DNA from: a virus
Length of the DNA stretch: 24,532 bases
Virus record (IMG/VR): IMGVR_UViG_3300020154_000115
Strand: one strand, 5' to 3'
Of this stretch, positions 9,156-24,454 are shown piece after piece; position 1 is the stretch's first letter; every line of letters starts with the position of its first letter. A program made the position numbers and the translations under genes. The notes below the pieces were generated by a model. That model ran no database searches, was not told where the DNA came from, and saw nothing but the letters and a program-made list of their open reading frames with translations.

Positions 9156-10166
9156 ATGTCAACAACAACAAATTTCTTCACTCAACTGAAGCCACTCCTC
9201 GAGAAGGGCCTGGACTTCACATTTACCGTACGGGCCCAGGGCGACAACTTGATTGTAGGAGTACGACCTGATTACGGCAAGGTTGAAAATGAGAACTTCA
9301 AACTCATTAAACCTCTCCTCCTCACCCATCCAGCGGAGAAGCTGGACGAAGGGTTCTTTGAAACGATAACGCAGCCCATGGAAACCTATTTGGATGTGGC
9401 CAAGCAGGTTGAAACCTGGACTGCAGATGTTAAGACCAAAGGCGAGAAAGTGAAGGAGGAGAAATCTCCGAGTAAATCCGAATCTAAGCCTAAGGCTAAA
9501 TCTAAACCCGATTCCAAGAAAACGAAACCAGCACCAAAGGCAGCAGCTACACCGAAGCCCGATCCTAATGAGAAGCTGAAGGCAACCCTTGACGATAAGC
9601 TATCCAAGATTAAGGAACTGGCCTTAACTGATCCGGCCGCCGTGGTCACCCTTGCGACTGAAGGACTGAAGCTGATCAGCAACAAGAAGGATAAACAAAT
9701 CCTTGAGGTAAAAGCAGAATTCTCCCAGCAATTGAAGAAAGCTAATGAAGCTTTGAAGATCCTGGCCGAAACCAAAAAAGCTGAGGAGAAAGACGCAAAG
9801 AATCTGGCAGCGGCCACTGAGATTGCCATACGCGGGAAGAAGTTCTTTGAGGAGGGCGAATATCAACGCGCTCTGGATGCATACCGTAAGGCCTACGCGA
9901 TCAAACCGCTTCCAGCCTGGTCACAGGACATTACGACCATGGAAAAGGCCATAGAGGATGAAAAGGCCGAGAAACTCGAAAAGCTCATTCAGAGTCTTGT
10001 TACCGAAGCTGACGCGCAGCGTAAAGGATTGAACTTCCCGGCATTTGCGGCAACCTGGAAGAAGATCAAAGAACTGAAGCCTGATCATCCCGCACTGGCA
10101 ACATTGCGCCAGGCCGTAGAGGTTGTGATCAATGAAGCCACAACAAAACAATTACTTGATAACTAA
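9156..10166 (+). CDS. PRTRC system protein E with K/P-rich linker and TPR-like C-terminal repeats
   Basis: N-terminal FFTQL...LIVGVRP...IKPLLLTHPAEKLDEGFFETITQP is the protein E pattern; directly upstream of protein C. Confidence 0.8.
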   Translation: MSTTTNFFTQLKPLLEKGLDFTFTVRAQGDNLIVGVRPDYGKVENENFKLIKPLLLTHPAEKLDEGFFETITQPMETYLDVAKQVETWTADVKTKGEKVKEEKSPSKSESKPKAKSKPDSKKTKPAPKAAATPKPDPNEKLKATLDDKLSKIKELALTDPAAVVTLATEGLKLISNKKDKQILEVKAEFSQQLKKANEALKILAETKKAEEKDAKNLAAATEIAIRGKKFFEEGEYQRALDAYRKAYAIKPLPAWSQDITTMEKAIEDEKAEKLEKLIQSLVTEADAQRKGLNFPAFAATWKKIKELKPDHPALATLRQAVEVVINEATTKQLLDN

Positions 10167-10190
10167 TTTAAAATAGGGGAACAACAGATC

Positions 10191-10415
10191 ATGAGTTTAT
10201 TAGAAAGCCAACCACTGAAACGAGTTTTTAAGTATGAGCACAAAGGCAAGCAGATTGAACTGGAAGATTTCAATCCGCTGGCTCCTCCTGAGGATATCAT
10301 AAAGTTTTATTCCGGGCAATACCCGGAGTTAACGAACGCGAGTGTTGAAAAACCAGAATTCGAAGGTGCGAATATGGTGTTCAACATCACTACGACAGTG
10401 GGAACTAAAGGATAG
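10191..10415 (+). CDS. PRTRC system protein C (prokaryotic ubiquitin-like)
   Basis: LKRVFKY...LEDFNP....EDIIKFYSGQYPELTNA...VGTKG*, the characteristic protein C signature with terminal Gly. Confidence 0.92.
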   Translation: MSLLESQPLKRVFKYEHKGKQIELEDFNPLAPPEDIIKFYSGQYPELTNASVEKPEFEGANMVFNITTTVGTKG

Positions 10416-10420
10416 AGCAA

Positions 10421-10708
10421 ATGCATATCCGAGAAATCTTTGAACCGGATCGCCAGAAGGAGATCCGGTTCCTTTGCCTTGGTGACATGGTTACTTATGA
10501 GGTATATGAAGAGGGCCATGCATGGGTCACAATCAATAAACATAGCCAAGGTCTTGAGATCAATCTATCCTCCACAAATATTGGAAAAAAAGGTATTACG
10601 GCCTACAGATACATCTGTGGTAAAAAGTTGATGGTTTTTTTTCCGTATCACGAAATCAAGTACCCACACTCACCACTTAAAAATGAAAACAGCAGAAGTA
10701 ATATCTAA
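10421..10708 (+). CDS. hypothetical protein inserted in the PRTRC cassette
   Basis: Starts 5 bp after the protein C stop and fills the gap. Confidence 0.55.
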   Translation: MHIREIFEPDRQKEIRFLCLGDMVTYEVYEEGHAWVTINKHSQGLEINLSSTNIGKKGITAYRYICGKKLMVFFPYHEIKYPHSPLKNENSRSNI

Positions 10709-10868
10709 ACTCACAAAGCAATGCAAGGAACAGAAACCCGGATTGATCGACAGGAAGCTACATCAGTTCATAGGCTCGTTGCTGGAATCCAGCCTGGACA
10801 AAGACAGGGAAAATCCAAACGACAAAAGGAAAACACTGGCCAGCGACGAGATTTTGTTAATGCTTTAG
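10683..10868 (+). CDS. small helical protein overlapping the start of the F-like gene
   Basis: Strong TAAAAATG start context and natural-looking amphipathic sequence; overlaps 10721..12046 in another frame. Confidence 0.45.
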   Translation: MKTAEVISKLTKQCKEQKPGLIDRKLHQFIGSLLESSLDKDRENPNDKRKTLASDEILLML

Positions 10869-12046
10869 GCATAAGAAAAGAGATTACCGCTCTTGAGGTC
10901 CTTAAAAATTTTGATGATATCGAAACAGAGGAACAGGCTCATTTTCTCCAATCGCTTTACAATTGTTGTAGAAAGCTTCCTAACTGGAAAGACATTACCT
11001 GGAACCACGAAGCAAGTTACACCGAGATGGTTGAGTACCTGTGGGGTTGTATCGAGACTGTAAATGGAATGAGCGCAGGTGCTCAGATCGTTTATGCTAA
11101 ACAACGCGCTAATGGCACAGGGAAATTGGATGAAAAGCCGCACTTCTATGCGATAATAGATCACCCGAAGATTGCTGCCCTTGCAATTTTTGCAGATTGC
11201 TGGATCCTTCCGGAGGTAGCGAAAAAAGAACCAAAGCTTTTTAAAATCATAGCAACAACGCTGGCGCTACTGAACAAACACAACGATATGGGTCTATGGG
11301 ACCGCATGGTTGATCAGGGCTATGATTCTGTATGGCAGGAATCACAGGAAGCTGGAGAATACACAGAAGCAGAAGATACTCCACAGCCTGATGCTGAAGC
11401 CTACGATGATCTGAGGCAGGAATACAACGACATCCTGGCCTATTGGAGCGATGGCCATGTGAGAGGAGATTATCCGGCAGGTGAGCCAGCTATTTATCTG
11501 AAGTTAGTGCGATCGCTTAATAAAACCCCGATCAGTAAACTTGAAAAGATGATCCGTTTGTATAGGGGCAAACCTTATATGAAAAAGTGGATGGTCCTGG
11601 CTCTTGAGTTGATCAAGACAAAAAAGAGCATCTACAATTACGATCATGAGAAACCGGACGAAGATTGTATAAGCCCTGCCGGGCTTTACTTCTTTCGCTG
11701 GTTTGGTCAGCAATACGAAGACGGTGCAGGTGATCGGCTGGAACTGTATACGGATTCCTTTTTACAATTGGAGCACGATGAAGGCAACTTCACAACATTT
11801 AGAATGTGCCGCCGAATCGATAAAACAGAGGATCCTTTCACCTGGCCTAAAGAGGAGATCATTCCTAAGAAATTTGAACAAATGATGCTAACCGCATCAG
11901 ACTCATTTTATCAACTCGAAAAAGCATACCATGGAGATCTTAAACGCAATAGAATCAAAATACAAGCCCAAAGGCGCATTGATTATTTATCAAAACCAAC
12001 GTGCCGACGACAAGACATCGCATTACGTAGAGTACGCCGAAATTAG
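10721..12046 (+). CDS. PRTRC-associated protein (protein F-like by position)
   Basis: 441-aa ORF between protein C and protein B, where F sits in PRTRC cassettes; sequence assignment not certain. Confidence 0.6.
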   Translation: MQGTETRIDRQEATSVHRLVAGIQPGQRQGKSKRQKENTGQRRDFVNALGIRKEITALEVLKNFDDIETEEQAHFLQSLYNCCRKLPNWKDITWNHEASYTEMVEYLWGCIETVNGMSAGAQIVYAKQRANGTGKLDEKPHFYAIIDHPKIAALAIFADCWILPEVAKKEPKLFKIIATTLALLNKHNDMGLWDRMVDQGYDSVWQESQEAGEYTEAEDTPQPDAEAYDDLRQEYNDILAYWSDGHVRGDYPAGEPAIYLKLVRSLNKTPISKLEKMIRLYRGKPYMKKWMVLALELIKTKKSIYNYDHEKPDEDCISPAGLYFFRWFGQQYEDGAGDRLELYTDSFLQLEHDEGNFTTFRMCRRIDKTEDPFTWPKEEIIPKKFEQMMLTASDSFYQLEKAYHGDLKRNRIKIQAQRRIDYLSKPTCRRQDIALRRVRRN

Positions 12047-12626
12047 GGACAAAGAACTGCAGCCCTTACGACCATTGAGAAACGAAGATCTTTCAAAGCT
12101 TTATTTCTTTCTGAGGACCTATCACACTGAAGCGGTCGCACAGCTATCCGGATTCCTACCTAAAAACATGGTGTTTTCTAATTTCCAACTCGGACAATAC
12201 GCATGGACAGTACCAGGTAAGAAAAGACCGGTTTACTTCGATAAGGGACTAAAAATCAAAGATGGCTCAATCCCATATCCAAACATGCTGTTTGTTGTTA
12301 AGGATGAATCATTGTACATCTACATCTACAAAGAGGCTGAACTGACTGCTCGGACTAAACTATACAGAGCTCCATTCTTAAACACTTATGCTGAAGGCAA
12401 TGTCTGTTTAGGTAACACAAACATGAAGGCTATAAAAAAAGCAACCACGTTCGAGGAATTCATAAAGGGATGGGAGAATATGTACTTCAACAGTAAATTC
12501 TCCTCCGGTGCAGGTGGAAAAAAAGAATTCATGGAAGCAATTCTTAATAAGCGGTTTTTCAATTGGCTTCCCCTAATCAAAAAGTTCAAACTCAAACCAC
12601 GTAAACTTAAATCAGTACTCCGATGA
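11931..12626 (+). CDS. PRTRC system protein B (prokaryotic E2 family D)
   Basis: PKGALIIY, SGFLPKN, IPYPNMLF and LYRAPFLNTYAEGNVCLG with an E2-like Cys; ATGA-coupled to ThiF. Confidence 0.88.
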   Translation: MEILNAIESKYKPKGALIIYQNQRADDKTSHYVEYAEIRDKELQPLRPLRNEDLSKLYFFLRTYHTEAVAQLSGFLPKNMVFSNFQLGQYAWTVPGKKRPVYFDKGLKIKDGSIPYPNMLFVVKDESLYIYIYKEAELTARTKLYRAPFLNTYAEGNVCLGNTNMKAIKKATTFEEFIKGWENMYFNSKFSSGAGGKKEFMEAILNKRFFNWLPLIKKFKLKPRKLKSVLR

Positions 12627-13492
12627 CTCAATACCATCACACAGTTCCGCCATATTTCGTAAGGCCTGATCACCCGATAACTATTATACTGATCGGACTC
12701 GGAGGCACCGGTTCTCTCCTACTCACTAAGCTGGCACAGATCAATAGCACCCTGATGGCATTACAGCATCCGGGAATTCAGGTTGCCGCCTGGGATGGAG
12801 ATATAGTAACCGAAGCCAACATTGGCCGACAGAATTTCTTTCCCGCTGACCTCGATCGCAATAAAGCAGAAGTCCTGATCGAAAGAGTAAACCGGGCATT
12901 TGGTTTTGGTTGGGTTTCGGTTCCTGATTATTATCCTAATGATAAGACGGACTATTCCAAGGTTAACGCAAATATATTCATCACATGCGTGGATAGTGCA
13001 ATGGCCAGGGAGAGAGTGCATAAACGGTTAACCGCACATTACACCAATAAGATCCTTCGTTCAACGGAATCCCGCGAAATCAACTTCATTCATGATATTG
13101 CTTATTGGATGGACATTGGCAATACCCAAAACTCAGGACAGATCATTCTGGGAACCCCTCAGGCTCTGGCTCAGCCAAAAGATCTTGATGGCGCCACGGG
13201 ATTCCTCCCCACTATTATGGACCTTTATCCTGATCTGCATAAATATGAGAACCCCGATCTGCCCAGCTGCTCTGTCGCCGAGTCTCTGCAGAAGCAGGAC
13301 CTTATGATTAACGGGATGATGGCAATGTGGGCAGGTAAACTCCTTTGGGATATGTTCCGGAAGATAAGGATCCAGCACTCAGGAGTTTATGTAAACCTTA
13401 ATACTTACCAGGTTAATCCAATGCCGATTACGCCATTCGATTTATTTGAATCAGTAATTAAGAAGCCGAAGAAACGACTTCAGAAAAAATAA
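12623..13492 (+). CDS. PRTRC system ThiF family (E1-like) protein
   Basis: IGLGGTGS nucleotide-binding loop, DGDIVTEANIGRQ, CVDS, WMDIGN, PSCS. Confidence 0.93.
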   Translation: MTQYHHTVPPYFVRPDHPITIILIGLGGTGSLLLTKLAQINSTLMALQHPGIQVAAWDGDIVTEANIGRQNFFPADLDRNKAEVLIERVNRAFGFGWVSVPDYYPNDKTDYSKVNANIFITCVDSAMARERVHKRLTAHYTNKILRSTESREINFIHDIAYWMDIGNTQNSGQIILGTPQALAQPKDLDGATGFLPTIMDLYPDLHKYENPDLPSCSVAESLQKQDLMINGMMAMWAGKLLWDMFRKIRIQHSGVYVNLNTYQVNPMPITPFDLFESVIKKPKKRLQKK

Positions 13493-13597: not shown

Positions 13598-14881
13598 ATG
13601 AGGGATACTTCAAAAGAAAACATGTCCGCAATAGCCTCAAACAAAAGAGGGGCACACCATAATCTTCACTTGCGCTATTATATGAATGTCTCTCCTAAGG
13701 AACAGTTCATGCAACCTCTTACCATTGGCGTTTCTATTCCACCGTTTGGTAGGGCCAGGATGATTATCGCTGATATCAAAGTCAATCGTGATCATATTAA
13801 GAATGGAAAAATTGTTGGAGAAGATGATTACACCAACACCATACGCCAGGCAGTTAACAAAATCGAAGTCGCACTCCATAAGATCTTTCTCGAGCACAAG
13901 GTAGCTGGCCGCATCCTTACCCCTCCACAGTTAGTTGATATATACCGGAAAATCGATCCGGCTAGTCAGGCGGTTTTATTGTCTGACCTGATTGATGACT
14001 TCAAGTCTGTCAACGAAGGAAAGCTGGATAAACCTACTTTAAAGGGATATTCTACATCCGTTAATCAGCTCTTTTTGTTCTTAGAAAAGGAGCATATGGC
14101 CTCGGACTTCATTGTTCAGGACCTAACAGTAAGGATGCTGACCAGGTTTGAAACGAATCTTAGAAAAAGCGGTCTTGCCGCATCAACGGTACAGCTCTAT
14201 GTCGATAAGCTGAATGCGCTGATGAAGTACGCGGTAAAGCAGGGGTTCATCCTGAAGAATCCTTTTGAAGAGTACGATCGATCAAACATGGTTCAGAAAG
14301 CTGAGTCCAATCCGGAAGATTTAGACAGGAAGATTGCAAAGGAGGACCTGCAGAGGATTGAACGCACCAAAGTCGATGATCCTGACCTGGAAAGGATGAG
14401 ATTGATATTTCTGTTCCAGCGCTGGACCGGCTTCGCCTGGAAGGATCTGGCCATGCAGGGCAATATTAAGAACCTGATTCGCTTAGATCTTACCGGGGAT
14501 GAGTCAATCATTTACAACAGGATGAAAACAGGAGTGTTGGCCATCGTGCCGTTGTTTGAGGAAACGAAGAAGATCCTGGAGGAGTTGAAGTACAACATTA
14601 ATCCGGGTCCTTACAAGGTCTACCTCCGCCGGATCAGAGCGCTGTTCACTCACTTTGGAATACCACTGGAAAAGCAAAGAGGTACGCACATCGCACGGCA
14701 TGTTTTCGGTAGCGAAATGCTTGAAATGGGTTTTTCAATGGAAAGTTTATCCCGGATGATGGGCCATTCCACTATCAAGGAGACGGAAAAAGTCTATGCA
14801 AAGATCAACATGGATAAGATCCGGGCGGACCTGAACAGGATTAGACAGCAACAGAAGCAGGCCGAGCAAATCGCCGTCTAA
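13598..14881 (+). CDS. tyrosine recombinase/integrase (Bacteroidota type, SAM-like core-binding domain)
   Basis: TGFAWKDL, RMKT, HIARHVF, MMGHS and TEKVY catalytic motifs. Confidence 0.92.
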   Translation: MRDTSKENMSAIASNKRGAHHNLHLRYYMNVSPKEQFMQPLTIGVSIPPFGRARMIIADIKVNRDHIKNGKIVGEDDYTNTIRQAVNKIEVALHKIFLEHKVAGRILTPPQLVDIYRKIDPASQAVLLSDLIDDFKSVNEGKLDKPTLKGYSTSVNQLFLFLEKEHMASDFIVQDLTVRMLTRFETNLRKSGLAASTVQLYVDKLNALMKYAVKQGFILKNPFEEYDRSNMVQKAESNPEDLDRKIAKEDLQRIERTKVDDPDLERMRLIFLFQRWTGFAWKDLAMQGNIKNLIRLDLTGDESIIYNRMKTGVLAIVPLFEETKKILEELKYNINPGPYKVYLRRIRALFTHFGIPLEKQRGTHIARHVFGSEMLEMGFSMESLSRMMGHSTIKETEKVYAKINMDKIRADLNRIRQQQKQAEQIAV

Positions 14882-15225: not shown

Positions 15226-15259
15226 CAAAAAAGCCGGATCAGTTCCGGCTTTTTTTGTT
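15224..15259. terminator. bidirectional intrinsic terminator
   Basis: AAAAAAGCCGGA-TCAGT-TCCGGCTTTTTT between convergent genes. Confidence 0.85.
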
Positions 15260-16573
15260 TTACATCATATTGGTGAATTCTCTCGACTCATCGATATCCA
15301 ATCCCTTCAGGTAGAATTCCGTTGTTGAAAGCTTAGCATGCCCGAGCGAATCCTGAATATATTTCAAGTTTGCCCCGGCTTTCAGTAAGATTGTTGCCGC
15401 GGTATGACGGGCGGTATAGGTTGTTATCTTCCCTTGAATACCCAAATCCGAAGCCACACGATTAAGCCACTTATTAGTAGTTTTTGTCCACTGTTTTATC
15501 TTTTTCTTTTTTGTTGCCTCATCCATCTGATCGTTGATCACGCCGAAGCAATACGGTTTGTGATTGCCGTATTTAGCAAGAACAGCCTTCATAACATCAT
15601 TCAACGGATGGACGATCGGGCGCTTTATTTTAACAGTGTTGATTGTTTTCTTCCGATAAAAGACCAGTACATCAGACTGGATCTGTTCAGGCTTCAGGTA
15701 AGCCATATCAATAAAGTTCATTCCCTTTGCGTAGTAGCTGAACATGAACTGCGAAATTGCCTTCTCTTTACCTGGTCTCCCAAACTTATTGTACTTCCCG
15801 ATTTCACCGTAATAGGTTGCCTTGTATTTCTTTTTCGGTACCGTATCGGGCAAAACCGGAATAAACACATGGTTATCCGGGTTGTAATTATTTAGCGTTT
15901 CCTTATCCTTCATCGCAAGGGCTTTCTTTGTACCAATGCCGGTAGGAATTTCATAAAGGTCCTGCCCAAACGGATAGAGACTCGCAGGCACCTGGCCGTC
16001 TTTAATGGCTTTTTTATACACCTTCCTTAGGTTCCGAAGGTAAATTCCGATTGTTGAATAGGACCTCCCCTTTTTTATCATCCAGGCTTCATAATCCTTC
16101 AGTACCTGGACATTGATTGACTGAAGCGTTAATTCCTCCCCTCCAAAATCCACCAGGCTCTTATAGGCATTAGCAAAGGTTTCTGCCGTCGATATGGTCC
16201 GGGCTTTATCCTCCTCATGCTTGAACATCATTTTAAGATCGGTGGCCATCACGAAATCCTTTCCCCATAGGGCCGCAAATAGCGTATGGGTTACGAACGG
16301 GTTCTGGTCAACCAAATCCCTGGCCATTTTTTTGTATCCCTCAAGCTCCTCTGATTGCTTCCGGAGAGAACCCCGGATATCTTTCGCATTCAGTTTATTC
16401 CATTCATCCGAAGTGAAGAAAAAATCCTTTGGCAGGTCATAATACTTTTGAGGGTAAGTGGCCTTGCCATCTTTGAACACCTTGTAGGTTACGCGGAGCT
16501 TTACCTTGTATTTCTTTTGGGCATAGGGGTACCTGATATCCAGGTATAGCCCTATTACTGGCTTTACTTGCAT
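15260..16573 (-). CDS. site-specific integrase of the element (tyrosine recombinase)
   Basis: N-terminal arm-binding-like LYLDIR..KVKLRVTY, SAM-like domain, GMNFIDM, RKKT, YTARH, LGH, TTEFY; adjacent to the tRNA 3' end. Confidence 0.93.
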   Translation of the reverse strand: MQVKPVIGLYLDIRYPYAQKKYKVKLRVTYKVFKDGKATYPQKYYDLPKDFFFTSDEWNKLNAKDIRGSLRKQSEELEGYKKMARDLVDQNPFVTHTLFAALWGKDFVMATDLKMMFKHEEDKARTISTAETFANAYKSLVDFGGEELTLQSINVQVLKDYEAWMIKKGRSYSTIGIYLRNLRKVYKKAIKDGQVPASLYPFGQDLYEIPTGIGTKKALAMKDKETLNNYNPDNHVFIPVLPDTVPKKKYKATYYGEIGKYNKFGRPGKEKAISQFMFSYYAKGMNFIDMAYLKPEQIQSDVLVFYRKKTINTVKIKRPIVHPLNDVMKAVLAKYGNHKPYCFGVINDQMDEATKKKKIKQWTKTTNKWLNRVASDLGIQGKITTYTARHTAATILLKAGANLKYIQDSLGHAKLSTTEFYLKGLDIDESREFTNMM

Positions 16574-16713: not shown

Positions 16714-16731
16714 AAAATCCCCTTTTCCCTG

Positions 16732-16805
16732 TGGGCCCAGCTGGGAACGATCCAGCGACCCCCTGATTATGAGTCAGGTGCTCTAACCAGCTGAGCTATG
16801 GGCCC
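16732..16805 (-). tRNA. tRNA with CAT anticodon, most likely tRNA-Ile2 (lysidine type); CCA not encoded
   Basis: Full cloverleaf GGGCCCA TA GCTC AGCTGGTTA GAGC A CCTGA CTCATAA TCAGG GGGTC GCTGG ATCGTTC CCAGC TGGGCCC A; resembles E. coli ileX rather than initiator Met. Confidence 0.93.
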
Positions 16806-21886: not shown

Positions 21887-24454
21887 TTACGTCTCTTTAC
21901 GAAGTACCTGTAGCGGCGGCGTATTGATCACCTCACGTGAATTAAACCATCCGATCAGGAGCGTGAGAAAAACCACTCCAAACACACTTACAGAGAGTTC
22001 CTGCCAATCAAACCCAAAAGTAATTTCGAAAAAATACGTGGTAAGCAAATAACCTCCACCCATGGCAAGGATTAGTCCGGTGAGCGCAGAAAACAATCCA
22101 AGCCAGGCATATTCAACTAATGTGATCATGGTTATTTGCCGGGTTCTTGCCCCGAGCGTTCGCAACAAAACATTTTCTTTCATGCGGATGAATTTACTGT
22201 TCACCACTGCACCTGCTAATACAATTAAGCCGGTAATCACGCAGAAGAGTGCAAGAAAACGCACGACAAGTCCCAGTTTGTCGAACAGGGCATTCACTGT
22301 ACTCAAAATTAGCCTCAAATCAATGAGGGACACATTTGGGAATTTCGTTACCAGTCCGCGTTGAAAAACATTGGCCTGTTGCTGATCATTTATGCGTGTA
22401 GCCGTAACGTATATTTGCGGTGCTTGTTCAAGGACACCGCGCGGAAAAACAAAAATGAAATTCGGAGGATCTTTTGGCCAATCGACTTTTCTGACGCCAC
22501 TGATATAAGCTTTCATCAACACACCTTGTACATCAAAAACAAGAGAATCGCCTACCGTGACCTGAAGGTTTTCTTCCATCCCTTCAGAGATCGTAACCTG
22601 AATTGAATCACGCCCCGGTTTTAATTTTTGCAGTTCCCCTTTTATTAATTCTTCCGAATGATGCAGGCTGTCGCGATATGTAACACGGTATTCCCTGGTT
22701 AATGCCCAGTTCGGAACTTTATCCGTCGTGTCTTGCTGAAGCGTCTCTACCGGCTTACCCTTTACTTCGGCCAACCTGCAGGTAATAATCGGCACAACCT
22801 GGTTTACTTTCAAATTATGTTCTTCCATTAAATCCACAACGCCCTCCTTCTGATGCGGTTGAATATCAAATAAAATGGTATTGGACTGATTTTCCTGTCC
22901 GGTAAATTCTACCTGCCCCAGCATACTACGTTCAACGATGTTTAAGGTTGAAATGATGAATGTTCCCAGTCCGATCGTGACAAGTAGGATACGGGTTTGA
23001 TTATTCGGACGATGTAAACTGGATAACGAATGGCGCAGAATGAAACCTGCGTTGACCGGAAAAAACTTACGAATCATAAACAGAAGAAACATTGCCACTA
23101 AGGTGAGGCATCCGAGTGCGACGCCGAGGCCAAGCATAAAGTATAAACCGGTAAGCAGACTTTCTGTCTGAAGGGCGGCAAATCCTGCGGGAAACAAAGT
23201 GATAAGAATAAGGGTGACTATTCTTGTTTTGGAAAAAATCCGCAGTTGTGGTTGTTCCGAACGCAGCACCGTTAACGGAGGAACAAATCGTACCGATATC
23301 AACGGAAGAATTGAAAAGAGAACAGATACCACTGCACCTAGAAGTAAACCGATCAGAATGGAATCCCAGGAAATTGAAAACGTAATATTAAAAGGCAGCA
23401 TTCCCTTCAATAAATAAGGCAGCACCTGTTGCACCCCTACACCGATCAACGCTCCGGCTATACTACTCAGGATACCCACGATAAAAATCTGGATAAAGAA
23501 TATAGAGAAAGCCTGCCATCCTGTTGTTCCTATACACCGCAACACGGCTACTTCCTGTCTTTTTTCATGTGCATAAATATGAACAGAACTTGCTACACCA
23601 ATGCAACCGAGTATCAACGCTACAAAAGCCAGCAAGGAAAAGAACTGGTATATGGAACCAAATGCTTTACCGAGCCCCTCCTTTCGCTTTTCCACAGTTT
23701 CATAGGAGTATCCTTCCTTCTTTAAAACAGGATTCAGCGATTCCACAACTTTCTCGACATCCGTTACCCCTGTCGATTTGAAATAGTTTTTATAATTAAC
23801 GCGGCTTCCGAATTGAACAAGTCGTGTAGAATCCAACGCTTCAAGATTAATATAAACCGAAGGTGTAAAGGTTGCCATGATACCTCCGCCACCGGGAATT
23901 TTGCGTACGACACCAGATACTTTAAATATACTGTTACCGATCCGAATCGAATCATCAGAGCTTACGGAATATTGACTGGCAAGGGATTCGTCAAGCATGG
24001 CATACTGACCGGATTTCATTTTTTCGTACGCATCTTCGGGAAGGGTTTCGATTGCCCCATAAAAGGGAAATGGCCCTGATATGGCAACTAACCGGATCAG
24101 ACGCGACTGCCCGGAATTCATGAACAATACCATCGACGCCATGTTTGCTTCACTTGCCTGTACCATGTTGGTGGAATCAAATGCAGCAAGCACATCGGGT
24201 GTAAACTTTTTATCGCCATTCACCACAAGATCTGCACCTAATAATTCTTTTGCATTACGGTCGATATCCTGCTGAAGGTTCTTGTTCAGTGAGTCGAGCG
24301 ATACAACGGCTGCAATACCCGCAATTAACGATGCAGCAAATAAAAATAAACGTGATAAATTGTGACGTGAATCGCGCCATGCCATGTGCCATACCCAGGG
24401 ATCGAATAAACTGTATCTTTTAGCGCGGGTGATCTTAATTTTATACTCTACCAT
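21887..24454 (-). CDS. ABC transporter permease, FtsX/YbbP-like
   Basis: MAWRDSR, LLGADL, FPFYG, two permease halves with AVLRCIG and LLRTLGA, ending PPLQVLR. Confidence 0.92.
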   Translation of the reverse strand: MVEYKIKITRAKRYSLFDPWVWHMAWRDSRHNLSRLFLFAASLIAGIAAVVSLDSLNKNLQQDIDRNAKELLGADLVVNGDKKFTPDVLAAFDSTNMVQASEANMASMVLFMNSGQSRLIRLVAISGPFPFYGAIETLPEDAYEKMKSGQYAMLDESLASQYSVSSDDSIRIGNSIFKVSGVVRKIPGGGGIMATFTPSVYINLEALDSTRLVQFGSRVNYKNYFKSTGVTDVEKVVESLNPVLKKEGYSYETVEKRKEGLGKAFGSIYQFFSLLAFVALILGCIGVASSVHIYAHEKRQEVAVLRCIGTTGWQAFSIFFIQIFIVGILSSIAGALIGVGVQQVLPYLLKGMLPFNITFSISWDSILIGLLLGAVVSVLFSILPLISVRFVPPLTVLRSEQPQLRIFSKTRIVTLILITLFPAGFAALQTESLLTGLYFMLGLGVALGCLTLVAMFLLFMIRKFFPVNAGFILRHSLSSLHRPNNQTRILLVTIGLGTFIISTLNIVERSMLGQVEFTGQENQSNTILFDIQPHQKEGVVDLMEEHNLKVNQVVPIITCRLAEVKGKPVETLQQDTTDKVPNWALTREYRVTYRDSLHHSEELIKGELQKLKPGRDSIQVTISEGMEENLQVTVGDSLVFDVQGVLMKAYISGVRKVDWPKDPPNFIFVFPRGVLEQAPQIYVTATRINDQQQANVFQRGLVTKFPNVSLIDLRLILSTVNALFDKLGLVVRFLALFCVITGLIVLAGAVVNSKFIRMKENVLLRTLGARTRQITMITLVEYAWLGLFSALTGLILAMGGGYLLTTYFFEITFGFDWQELSVSVFGVVFLTLLIGWFNSREVINTPPLQVLRKET

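Follow-up and report, generated by a model that had tools for sequence, protein, structure and literature searches.

[quoted passage not shown] PRTRC stands for ParB-Related, ThiF-Related Cassette (NCBIfam TIGR03734-03742) and corresponds to operon type 6d in Iyer, Burroughs and Aravind 2006 (PMC1779556).

The cassette genes

Pfam and NCBIfam HMMs identified protein E, protein C, an E2 and an E1 in the cassette, all co-oriented (Table 1), which bore out the gene identities proposed in the initial annotation. The TIGR03738 match of protein C extended to its final residue, G74, where VGTKG was followed by the stop codon; as had been proposed, the Ubl already ends on Gly.

Table 1. Coordinates of the cassette genes and of features at the adjoining end of the prophage
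Feature	Coordinates	Strand	Evidence or remark
PRTRC protein E	9156..10166	+	PF19556 E 1.6e-17 (residues 4-119); TIGR03741 43.3 bits, cutoff 37.95
Ubiquitin-like protein C (Prok_Ub), 74 aa	10191..10415	+	PF14454 E 4e-19; TIGR03738 53.5 bits, cutoff 45.95
Orphan ORF, 95 aa	10421..10708	+	inserted between Ubl gene and ORF S
Small ORF S, 61 aa	10683..10868	+	overlaps first 148 nt of F-like gene in a frame offset by one base
F-like protein, 441 aa	10721..12046	+	position and profile alignment
E2-like protein B (Prok-E2_D)	11931..12626	+	PF14460 E 5e-27, 95 bits, cutoff 25
ThiF-type E1 (PRTRC ThiF family)	12623..13492	+	TIGR03736 236 bits, cutoff 144.75
Tyrosine recombinase (integrase 1)	13598..14881	+	Phage_int_SAM_5 E 2.2e-12; Phage_integrase E 7.3e-8
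Intrinsic-terminator-like hairpin, strong	15227..15255	+	12-bp stem, then T run
Second tyrosine recombinase, adjoins tRNA	15260..16573	-	Phage_int_SAM_5 E 5e-15; Phage_integrase E 6e-13
tRNA-Met	16731..16805	-	ARAGORN

The HMM match of protein E was confined to N-terminal residues 1-119. Residues 1-100 made up an alpha/beta domain at the N-terminus, a disordered linker rich in Lys and Pro followed (approximately 102-136), and the C-terminal domain was helical; the AF2 model had a pLDDT of 81.6 (<50 in the linker). The top Foldseek matches were TPR proteins (E 0.01-0.1, probability up to 1.0) and Pfam gave a sub-threshold TPR_11 match; as modelled, the C-terminal domain is TPR-like.

Protein B scored 84.7 bits against TIGR03737, under the cutoff of 131.45, and the first 116 nt of its gene were shared with the F-like ORF. 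Its putative membership of the E2/UBC superfamily was taken solely from the Pfam profile, and a search by sequence for a solved relative found none. P148, N151, C159 and G161 were invariant among 69 unique relatives; Cys159 and Asn151 are the candidate catalytic residues. The E1 motifs GxGGxG (25-30), R69/Q70, K81, D124 and PSCS (214-217) were at least 97% conserved across 78 relatives. The E2 Cys and the E1 GxGGxG and PSCS motifs had all been picked out in the initial annotation. The nearest solved relatives of the E1 by sequence were NEDD8 E1, UBA6, Cap2 and ThiF, in the adenylation half only, with the alignments ending at about residue 171. Cys216 of PSCS, which was near-invariant, is the candidate catalytic Cys, an assignment made from conservation alone; this, with solved E1s aligning only in the adenylation half, counts against the conjugation mechanism.

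The 10721-12046 ORF had been called F-like. HMM searches with this ORF gave no match, NCBIfam PRTRC_F (TIGR03742) included, and it did not align with five proteobacterial PRTRC_F proteins (hhalign E 0.028). However, it occupies the place of protein F, between C and E2, is alpha-rich, and is homologous by profile to the product of the Bacteroidota gene found there (hhalign 98.2%, E 3.8e-14, 340 columns). A search of 1.84 billion representatives gave only six relatives at E<=1e-3. The protein had a folded alpha-rich body (residues 56-417) and disordered ends that are encoded in both gene overlaps (AF2 pLDDT 78.7, pTM 0.76). A fold search with the model gave no convincing match and no conserved Cys/His/Ser set was found in alignments of the family, so a scaffold fits better than an enzyme. 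The body differed from that of a 52%-identical sister locus (L009) at 72, 61 and 130 first, second and third codon positions respectively, which indicates purifying selection.

ORF S was 62% identical to L009:749-931, with 12, 13 and 22 differences and thus an excess at its own third codon positions, and codon-position entropy revealed its frame to be the constrained one as far as its own stop. An ORF of the same geometry was present in 69 of 74 loci, and the equivalent in phage BgVeeders33 was a separate, annotated 61-aa gene. ORF S occurs in Bacteroidota, where it overprints the 5′-end of F, and in some Proteobacteria, and is almost always missing from annotation. By these patterns of conservation, ORF S is a component of the cassette that usually goes unannotated. 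Annotation-based constructs would retain it by accident only, and recoding or re-phasing the F gene would destroy it. The orphan ORF matched only itself among 5.8 billion clusters and was missing from L009, in which 57 nt separate the Ubl gene from ORF S; its protein-coding status is uncertain. Both small ORFs had been overlooked in the initial annotation.

A prophage without JAB or ParB

The element is a temperate tailed prophage of approximately 78 kb from soil and of Bacteroidota, integrated beside a tRNA-Met. Its phage nature, proposed earlier from the window, follows from PHROGs matches to terminase (E 1.4e-71), portal (E 6.5e-56) and tail and virion proteins, and an 88 kb read spans the whole prophage. 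Some 3 kb separated the cassette from the tRNA-Met end; it formed the 3′-terminal part of a long array of co-oriented non-structural genes, immediately ahead of integrase 1, which has the same orientation. The hairpin ends this + strand array, and the tRNA-Met is likely both the integration site and the right prophage end. Past it were chromosomal-looking genes, namely a beta-helix protein and a T9SS CHU_C protein; the last gene of the window (21887-24454) was MacB_PCD/FtsX in its Pfam record.

The initial annotation had seen no JAB and no ParB near the cassette, and this could be extended to the whole element. Neither was found by a Pfam scan of called ORFs up to 21825 or in the precomputed Pfam matches of every called gene from 29,507 to 117,407 of the record. 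Local HMMs were built from six PRTRC_A and five PRTRC ParB proteins and run on all six frames of this 88 kb read; the best JAB match had an E of 0.036 (10.8 bits) and ParB had zero matches. The cassette thus has neither protein A (TIGR03735) nor a heading ParB (TIGR03734), and the 228-aa ORF upstream had no Pfam or NCBIfam match.

Among 80 related genome loci, protein A was present in two and absent in 78, PRTRC ParB was present in one, and 61, mostly in transposon-like elements, had the gene order E-C-F-B-ThiF. The JAB-less, ParB-less form is therefore normal for Bacteroidota and is not peculiar to this cassette. As it is phylum-wide and includes conjugative-transposon copies beside topoisomerase genes, the absence of JAB is not a phage adaptation. 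The terminal Gly, which with the missing JAB had been taken as distinguishing, proved equally ordinary, being usual in the family and also in plasmids that have a JAB. A G[TV]KG C-terminus was found in about 70 of the 73 family members collected, and the Gly was also exposed in the 68-72 aa C proteins of three loci that have a JAB (L090, L091 and L093), so it does not mark a JAB-independent design. A precursor tail of about 45-60 aa was seen in only four copies collected, all JAB-bearing (phages Dina and BgVeeders33, loci L045 and L057). Since most Bacteroidota copies lack JAB and ParB, the minimal set comprises E, C, S, F, B and ThiF.

Predicted conjugation and alternative roles

From the gene identities, motif conservation, gene order, phage context and absence of JAB and ParB observed here, we infer every chemical step and every target of the following mechanism. 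The ThiF-type E1 would bind ATP and adenylate Gly74, the exposed C-terminus of the 74-aa Ubl, which would then be transferred as a thioester onto Cys216 of the E1 and on to Cys159 of the E2, with Asn151 in the role of the classical E2 Asn, and would end up linked to a target protein through one of its lysines. E, S and the fast-evolving, helical F may take part without enzymatic activity, as adaptors or as substrates; E would combine its small conserved N-domain and Lys-rich linker with a TPR-like, peptide-binding domain. The phage itself appears to encode no deconjugating peptidase. Retention in the window of the invariant or near-invariant E1 and E2 residues of its relatives supports this mechanism, as do the 61 genome loci, together with annotated plasmids and phages, that show the same gene order. 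A search of the literature found no biochemical test or functional study of any PRTRC system, so conjugation itself is a 20-year-old prediction.

CBASS Cap2 and Bil are bacterial E1/E2/Ubl systems that act in phage conflicts, and it is conceivable, but unlikely, that the cassette is, as the initial annotation proposed, a 'write-only' system with which the phage tags proteins of host defence or of rival elements early in infection (counter-defence or superinfection exclusion). Only mobile elements carry the cassette, whether plasmids, CTn-like elements or phages; here it lies within a non-structural gene array, and no deconjugase was found in the element. However, the lack of JAB is shared with the conjugative-transposon copies, a tag could still be removed by host proteases or JAB proteins, and PADLOC gave no match to a known defence or anti-defence family past the weak Cap2-E1 similarity. 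The write-only, counter-defence and superinfection-defence roles are unsupported guesses.

An equally doubtful role is the modification or regulation of the element's own replication or maintenance machinery, as opposed to action against defence systems, for instance by tagging of E, F, S or of a protein associated with a clamp or topoisomerase. In canonical cassettes ParB comes first, and Bacteroidales copies adjoin topoisomerase genes in 35 loci and DUF3945/DUF4099 genes in 32. A dnaN-like clamp gene is directly upstream of protein E in L044, a gene cluster seen in five loci, and many E proteins have, besides Lys-rich linkers, an 'SLF'-type motif that recalls clamp-binding peptides. These are associations and motif resemblances throughout; the window E ends QLLDN, which is not a clean clamp motif, and the prophage has no ParB.

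More speculative still is a reading in which PRTRC holds S as an ancient, overlooked seventh component of about 60 aa that overprints the start of F and has a conserved C-terminal peptide, R-x-L-P-P-x-x-x followed by hydrophobic residues, and in which S, F and the TPR-extended E of the JAB-less phage form select the substrates of an irreversible Ubl-tagging machine. Its targets, early in infection, would be replication or defence proteins of the host or the phage.

The E2 bears on whether conjugation occurs at all. Position 192 of protein B was Ser in the window and in L009 and His in 65 of the 69 unique relatives, so the window E2 does not have the His C-terminal to the Cys that was called 'absolutely conserved' by Iyer et al. 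2006 (PMC1779556). With Ser192 and the TIGR03737 score under cutoff, this E2 may have a different or weakened chemistry. The L009 E2, however, keeps Ser192 at 63% identity and under purifying selection, which argues for function and not decay; the His would then be dispensable in at least one lineage. ThiF/MoeB relatives perform sulfur chemistry, and the lineage, with its altered E2, might have lost conjugation, with C and ThiF an adenylation or sulfur-carrier pair or the cassette decaying, but this seems the least likely reading, given the conservation of Ser192 in L009, the retention in the E2 of Cys, Asn, Pro and Gly and in the E1 of PSCS, and Pfam records that show no rhodanese and no cysteine desulfurase in the element. 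Three points matter for reconstitution of the system, namely the minimal gene set, the overlapping ORF S and the dispensable E2 His.

Comparison with known systems

PRTRC ThiF matches were found in 394 plasmid records and also in many conjugative transposons and phages, which places PRTRC among the most widespread predicted bacterial ubiquitin-like systems. Like canonical examples (Aromatoleum aromaticum EbN1 plasmid 1 and Paraburkholderia plasmid PPGU19_p3), the window had the E, C, B and ThiF families in the order E-C-(S)-F-B-ThiF, a Ubl ending G-T-K-G, an E2 with the conserved Cys and without the classical HPN His, an alpha-helical fast-evolving protein between Ubl and E2, and carriage on a mobile element. 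Unlike them, it lacked protein A (JAB) and ParB, its F-like protein was not seen by TIGR03742, its E2 was under the TIGR03737 cutoff with no His after the Cys, its E was extended by a TPR-like domain, and an orphan 95-aa ORF followed the Ubl gene.

The JAB-less Bacteroidota sets, of which those on Parabacteroides distasonis plasmid 24 (NZ_OY725769.1) and a Tunicatimonas pelagia plasmid (NZ_CP120684.1) are already in NCBI annotation and 61 were in the genome loci (L010-L089), shared with the window the order E-C-S-F-B-ThiF without A or ParB, the F profile homology, an S overprinting the 5′-end of F and, often, an integrase directly 3′. Identities to the window were <=45% for ThiF, approximately 9-15% for F and 25-30% for E2. 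These sets retain the E2 His that the window lacks, and most of them neighbour topoisomerase and DUF3945/DUF4099 genes (CTn-like), whereas the cassette of the window lies in a tailed prophage.

The characterised bacterial systems CBASS Cap2/Cap3, Bil (type II BilABCD) and Bub (DUF6527 E2) likewise combine a Ubl, an E1 and an E2 with catalytic cysteines, and the E1 adenylation domain of the window is weakly similar to Cap2. The predicted system of the window differs from them in its E2 (Prok-E2_D) and Ubl (Prok_Ub) families, its extra E, F and S, its lack of a deconjugase and its location on a mobile element and not in a host defence island.

Phage-borne PRTRC is found in Ralstonia phage Dina (NC_055026) and Burkholderia phage BgVeeders33 (OK665841), and prophage-borne copies have been published from B. 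gladioli prophage AB2 (PMC13366799) and a Phocaeicola vulgatus prophage (bioRxiv 10.64898/2026.10.01.756045). As in the window, these are temperate tailed phages in which the cassette ends a co-oriented run of small genes near the genome end. The proteobacterial phages keep protein A and encode a 129-aa Ubl precursor in which a tail follows the Gly, whereas the window has neither protein A nor a tail. PRTRC on phages is thus already known, in print and in RefSeq, and the window adds a diverged copy and no new principle; its new details are ORF S, Ser192 of the E2, and an F-like protein with six detectable relatives and no known fold.

The cassette and its proposed conjugation chemistry

Analysis with curated family profiles agreed with the initial annotation in placing the PRTRC genes for E, C, B and ThiF between 9156 bp and 13,492 bp, all in the same orientation. 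The match of TIGR03738 also bore out the reading of the ubiquitin-like protein (Ubl, protein C) as one that ends at VGTKG, as it extended to the terminal glycine.

Features of the window and equivalent features in related loci
Feature	Coordinates	Strand	Remarks
PRTRC protein E	9156-10166	+	PF19556/TIGR03741, matching the first 119 residues only
Ubl, protein C	10191-10415	+	Prok_Ub, E 4e-19; TIGR03738 match reaches the final Gly of VGTKG
Orphan ORF, 95 aa	3' of the Ubl gene		not present in L009
ORF S	window 10683-10868; L001:1730-1963; L009:749-931; L098:4111-4296; L090:9208-9420		overlaps the 5' end of PRTRC F
F-like ORF, 441 aa	10721-12046		no family model matched
E2, Prok-E2_D (protein B)	11931-12626	+	E 5e-27; TIGR03737 84.7 bits (cutoff 131.45)
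PRTRC ThiF-type E1	12623-13492	+	236 bits (cutoff 144.75)
Integrase, tyrosine recombinase	13598-14881	+	right of the cassette, before the 100-aa ORF
ORF, 100 aa	between integrase and terminator
Strong terminator	15227-15255
Second integrase, tyrosine recombinase	15260-16573	-
tRNA-Met	16731-16805	-
Last window gene	21887-24454		MacB_PCD/FtsX on record
Ubl precursors, 117-129 aa	L003:4950-5339; L098:3725-4114; L045:7282-7635; L057:7266-7655		tail after G-x-K-G

The residues expected of the two enzymes were well preserved. Pro148, Asn151, Cys159 and Gly161 of the E2 were invariant among 69 unique relatives, and the E1 GxGGxG motif (residues 25-30), Arg69/Gln70, Lys81, Asp124 and the PSCS motif with Cys216 were each at least 97% conserved in 78 relatives. 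Position 192 of the E2, at which 65 of the 69 relatives encode the His that Iyer et al. (PMC1779556) described as "absolutely conserved", was Ser both in the window and in the sister locus L009. In protein E the profile-matched N-terminal part was followed by a disordered linker rich in Lys and Pro and then by a C-terminal domain that was helical and had its best, though weak, matches among peptide-binding TPR domains.

A classical cascade is the best-supported reading of these genes. For each chemical step we infer that Gly74 of the Ubl would be adenylated, that the Ubl would then form a thioester with the E1 and after it with the E2, and that it would finally be conjugated to lysine; E, F and S may serve as adaptors or substrates. 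In L009 a GC-rich hairpin with a T run behind it lay directly 3' of the Ubl gene (700 bp-745 bp) and could be a partial terminator giving Ubl transcript in excess of enzyme transcript. The equivalent position in the window was taken by the orphan 95-aa ORF.

JAB, ParB and the Ubl terminus in related loci

The Pfam scan of the called window ORFs up to 21,825 bp revealed neither JAB nor ParB, nor did the precomputed Pfam matches, which covered all called genes in the 88 kb that were read. Local HMMs for PRTRC_A (from six proteins) and PRTRC ParB (from five proteins), run against all six frames, gave no JAB (best E 0.036) and no match to ParB. These scans agree with the absence of both genes from the window as first described. 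A JAB gene elsewhere in the element, which the initial annotation had named as evidence against its proposal of protein tagging without removal, was likewise not found at profile sensitivity in the 88 kb, since the Pfam records and the six-frame HMMs were both without one.

Scanning one genome per species with a ThiF alignment yielded 80 related loci, mostly from Bacteroidota. Iterated local HMMs showed the order E-C-F-B-ThiF in 61 of these, most of the others being truncated at a contig end. Protein A was present in two of the 80 and PRTRC ParB in one, neither of them in Bacteroidota, and the absence of JAB and ParB here is not very unusual. JAB-less PRTRC sets are already annotated in RefSeq on Parabacteroides and Tunicatimonas plasmids, and the set on a Thiodictyon plasmid is JAB-less too.

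About 70 of the 73 collected C proteins ended in G[TV]KG, among them those encoded on Aromatoleum, Paraburkholderia and Sphingomonas plasmids that also bear JAB. Only four copies had a tail after the glycine, of about 45-60 aa (Ralstonia phage Dina, Burkholderia phage BgVeeders33 and the MAG loci L045 and L057), all of which carried protein A. The Ubl ended at Gly in all JAB-less copies and in the three JAB-bearing plasmid copies that were aligned or measured, a sample too small for statistics. Because a terminal Gly is already the rule, maturation cannot be the role of JAB in most PRTRC systems, and JAB can be lost with the Ubl left as it is.

Carrier elements and possible roles

The window makes up the final 24.5 kb of a contig of 117 kb from a soil metagenome; gene content to its left was followed by stepwise exact-protein look-ups. 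This showed a long plus-strand array of small genes (YopX, HTH, exonuclease) with the cassette at its end; a divergently oriented structural module encoding the large terminase subunit (E 1.4e-71), a portal protein (E 6.5e-56), and virion and tail proteins; and, far to the left, a module for replication (DnaB, exonuclease), beyond which the genes were host-like. These three modules, together with the integrases and tRNA-Met on the right, indicate a tailed prophage some 78 kb long, in which about 3 kb separate the cassette from the tRNA end. Also encoded in the structural module were two further proteins, one of 1990 aa containing an LPD38 "large polyvalent protein" domain (L095, the same contig upstream of the window, 11,709 bp-17,681 bp) and one of 1070 aa containing a crAss_MUZ_C domain (L095, 6002 bp-9214 bp). 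The two tyrosine recombinase genes converge on the strong terminator beside tRNA-Met; both could belong to one prophage, or a small second element could occupy the same site.

No relative of the ThiF protein was found among viral contigs, and the early proteins of the window (228, 88, 147, 111, 125, 489 and 100 aa) had no relatives near other PRTRC cassettes. The Bacteroidales copies had a topoisomerase as neighbour in 35 loci, DUF3945/DUF4099 proteins in 32 and integrases in 21; their carriers are conjugative-transposon-like elements. Directly upstream of protein E, L044 encoded a paralogue of the sliding clamp, DNA polymerase III beta (6316 bp-7443 bp), and this gene cluster was found in five loci.

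A counter-defence role for the cassette is possible, its sole basis being residence in mobile elements. A role in the replication or maintenance of the element's own DNA is equally plausible, as suggested by the ParB, topoisomerase and dnaN neighbours and by 'SLF', 'DLF' or 'TLF' peptides, reminiscent in sequence of clamp-binding motifs, that many E proteins (including those of L001, L010, L012, L013, L021 and L044) contain close to the C-terminus or past the Lys-rich region.

Overlapping reading frames and the known PRTRC cassettes

A 61-aa ORF, designated S, overlaps the 5'-end of the F gene in a frame offset by one base. Of 74 loci, 69 had an ORF of about 55-80 aa arranged in this way, with both frames open across the overlap. 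In 57 unique Bacteroidota sequences, variability up to the S stop was highest at the third codon position of S, and right after this stop it was highest at the third position of F. S of the window and of L009 shared 62% identity, with 12, 13 and 22 differences at S codon positions 1, 2 and 3. We read S as a real gene, usually unannotated, whose sequence constrains the overlap, with F having a disordered leader there (residues 1-55, AlphaFold pLDDT <50). RefSeq lacked an S annotation in the loci checked, with the exception of phage BgVeeders33.

The high conservation of the S/F junction, (C/G)TT TTC TGA/TAA, prompted a second, less likely reading, a programmed -1 frameshift fusing S to F. This was set aside as the main reading, as the F frame contained no stop in the overlap in 59 unique sequences, compared to 168 stops in the third frame; the F ATG, formed by an A-ending codon (NNA) and a conserved Cys codon (TGY), was kept in 57 of these 59; the junction in the window lineage, ATG CTT TAG, allows no -1 re-pairing; and BgVeeders33 carries a separate annotated 61-aa gene at the S position. 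An HMM of Bacteroidales S matched the Tunicatimonas copy (E 4.5e-4) and missed the proteobacterial copies and that of the window; tblastn of the small BgVeeders33 protein against plasmids found nothing. The HMM therefore gave no link from the window copy to Bacteroidales S, and homology in this lineage is argued from the position of S, the geometry of its overlap and a C-terminal pattern (Arg, Leu-Pro-Pro-like, hydrophobic end) that proteobacterial, deltaproteobacterial and Bacteroidota copies have in common.

HMMER, run in full over 1.84 billion representatives, yielded only six relatives of the F-like protein. The closest (52%) was on L009, a 3.4-kb metagenome contig with the order Ubl-F-E2-E1 as here. 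In profile comparison, hhalign aligned the family with the same-slot gene of 68 Bacteroidota loci (98.2%, E 3.8e-14, 340 columns), whereas no family model matched and five proteobacterial PRTRC F proteins gave no significant alignment (E 0.028). The AlphaFold model (pLDDT 78.7, pTM 0.76) was mainly helical and confident for residues 56-417. Searches of the PDB with Foldseek (best E 0.31), of the ESM Atlas (TM <=0.24) and with VIA-align wide (Z <=7.1, a single helical hairpin only) left F without a fold match in any library, which does not prove a new fold. A hidden peptidase was rejected, as the family alignments showed no conserved Cys/His/Ser/Asp set, and F is accordingly read as a scaffold or adaptor. 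The last 116 nt of the F-like ORF lie within the E2 gene, in another frame (window 11,931 bp-12,046 bp; L009, 1979 bp-2085 bp), and the tail encoded there was poorly modelled (pLDDT about 40-50).

A second, unrelated Ubl operon (L002, 15,059 bp-17,154 bp) was carried by the Tunicatimonas pelagia plasmid in addition to its JAB-less PRTRC set; this was of the Bub type, with a DUF6527 E2-like protein, a ThiF adenylyltransferase and a multiubiquitin protein. A literature search found no experimental paper on PRTRC, and recent papers that mention it call its function unknown. PRTRC on temperate phages is already in print (PMC13366799; bioRxiv 10.64898/2026.10.01.756045) and in RefSeq (phage Dina). 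The parts worth carrying forward are the small overlapping ORF S and the His-less E2; the locus itself is a diverged copy of a known, though unstudied, kind of PRTRC cassette.
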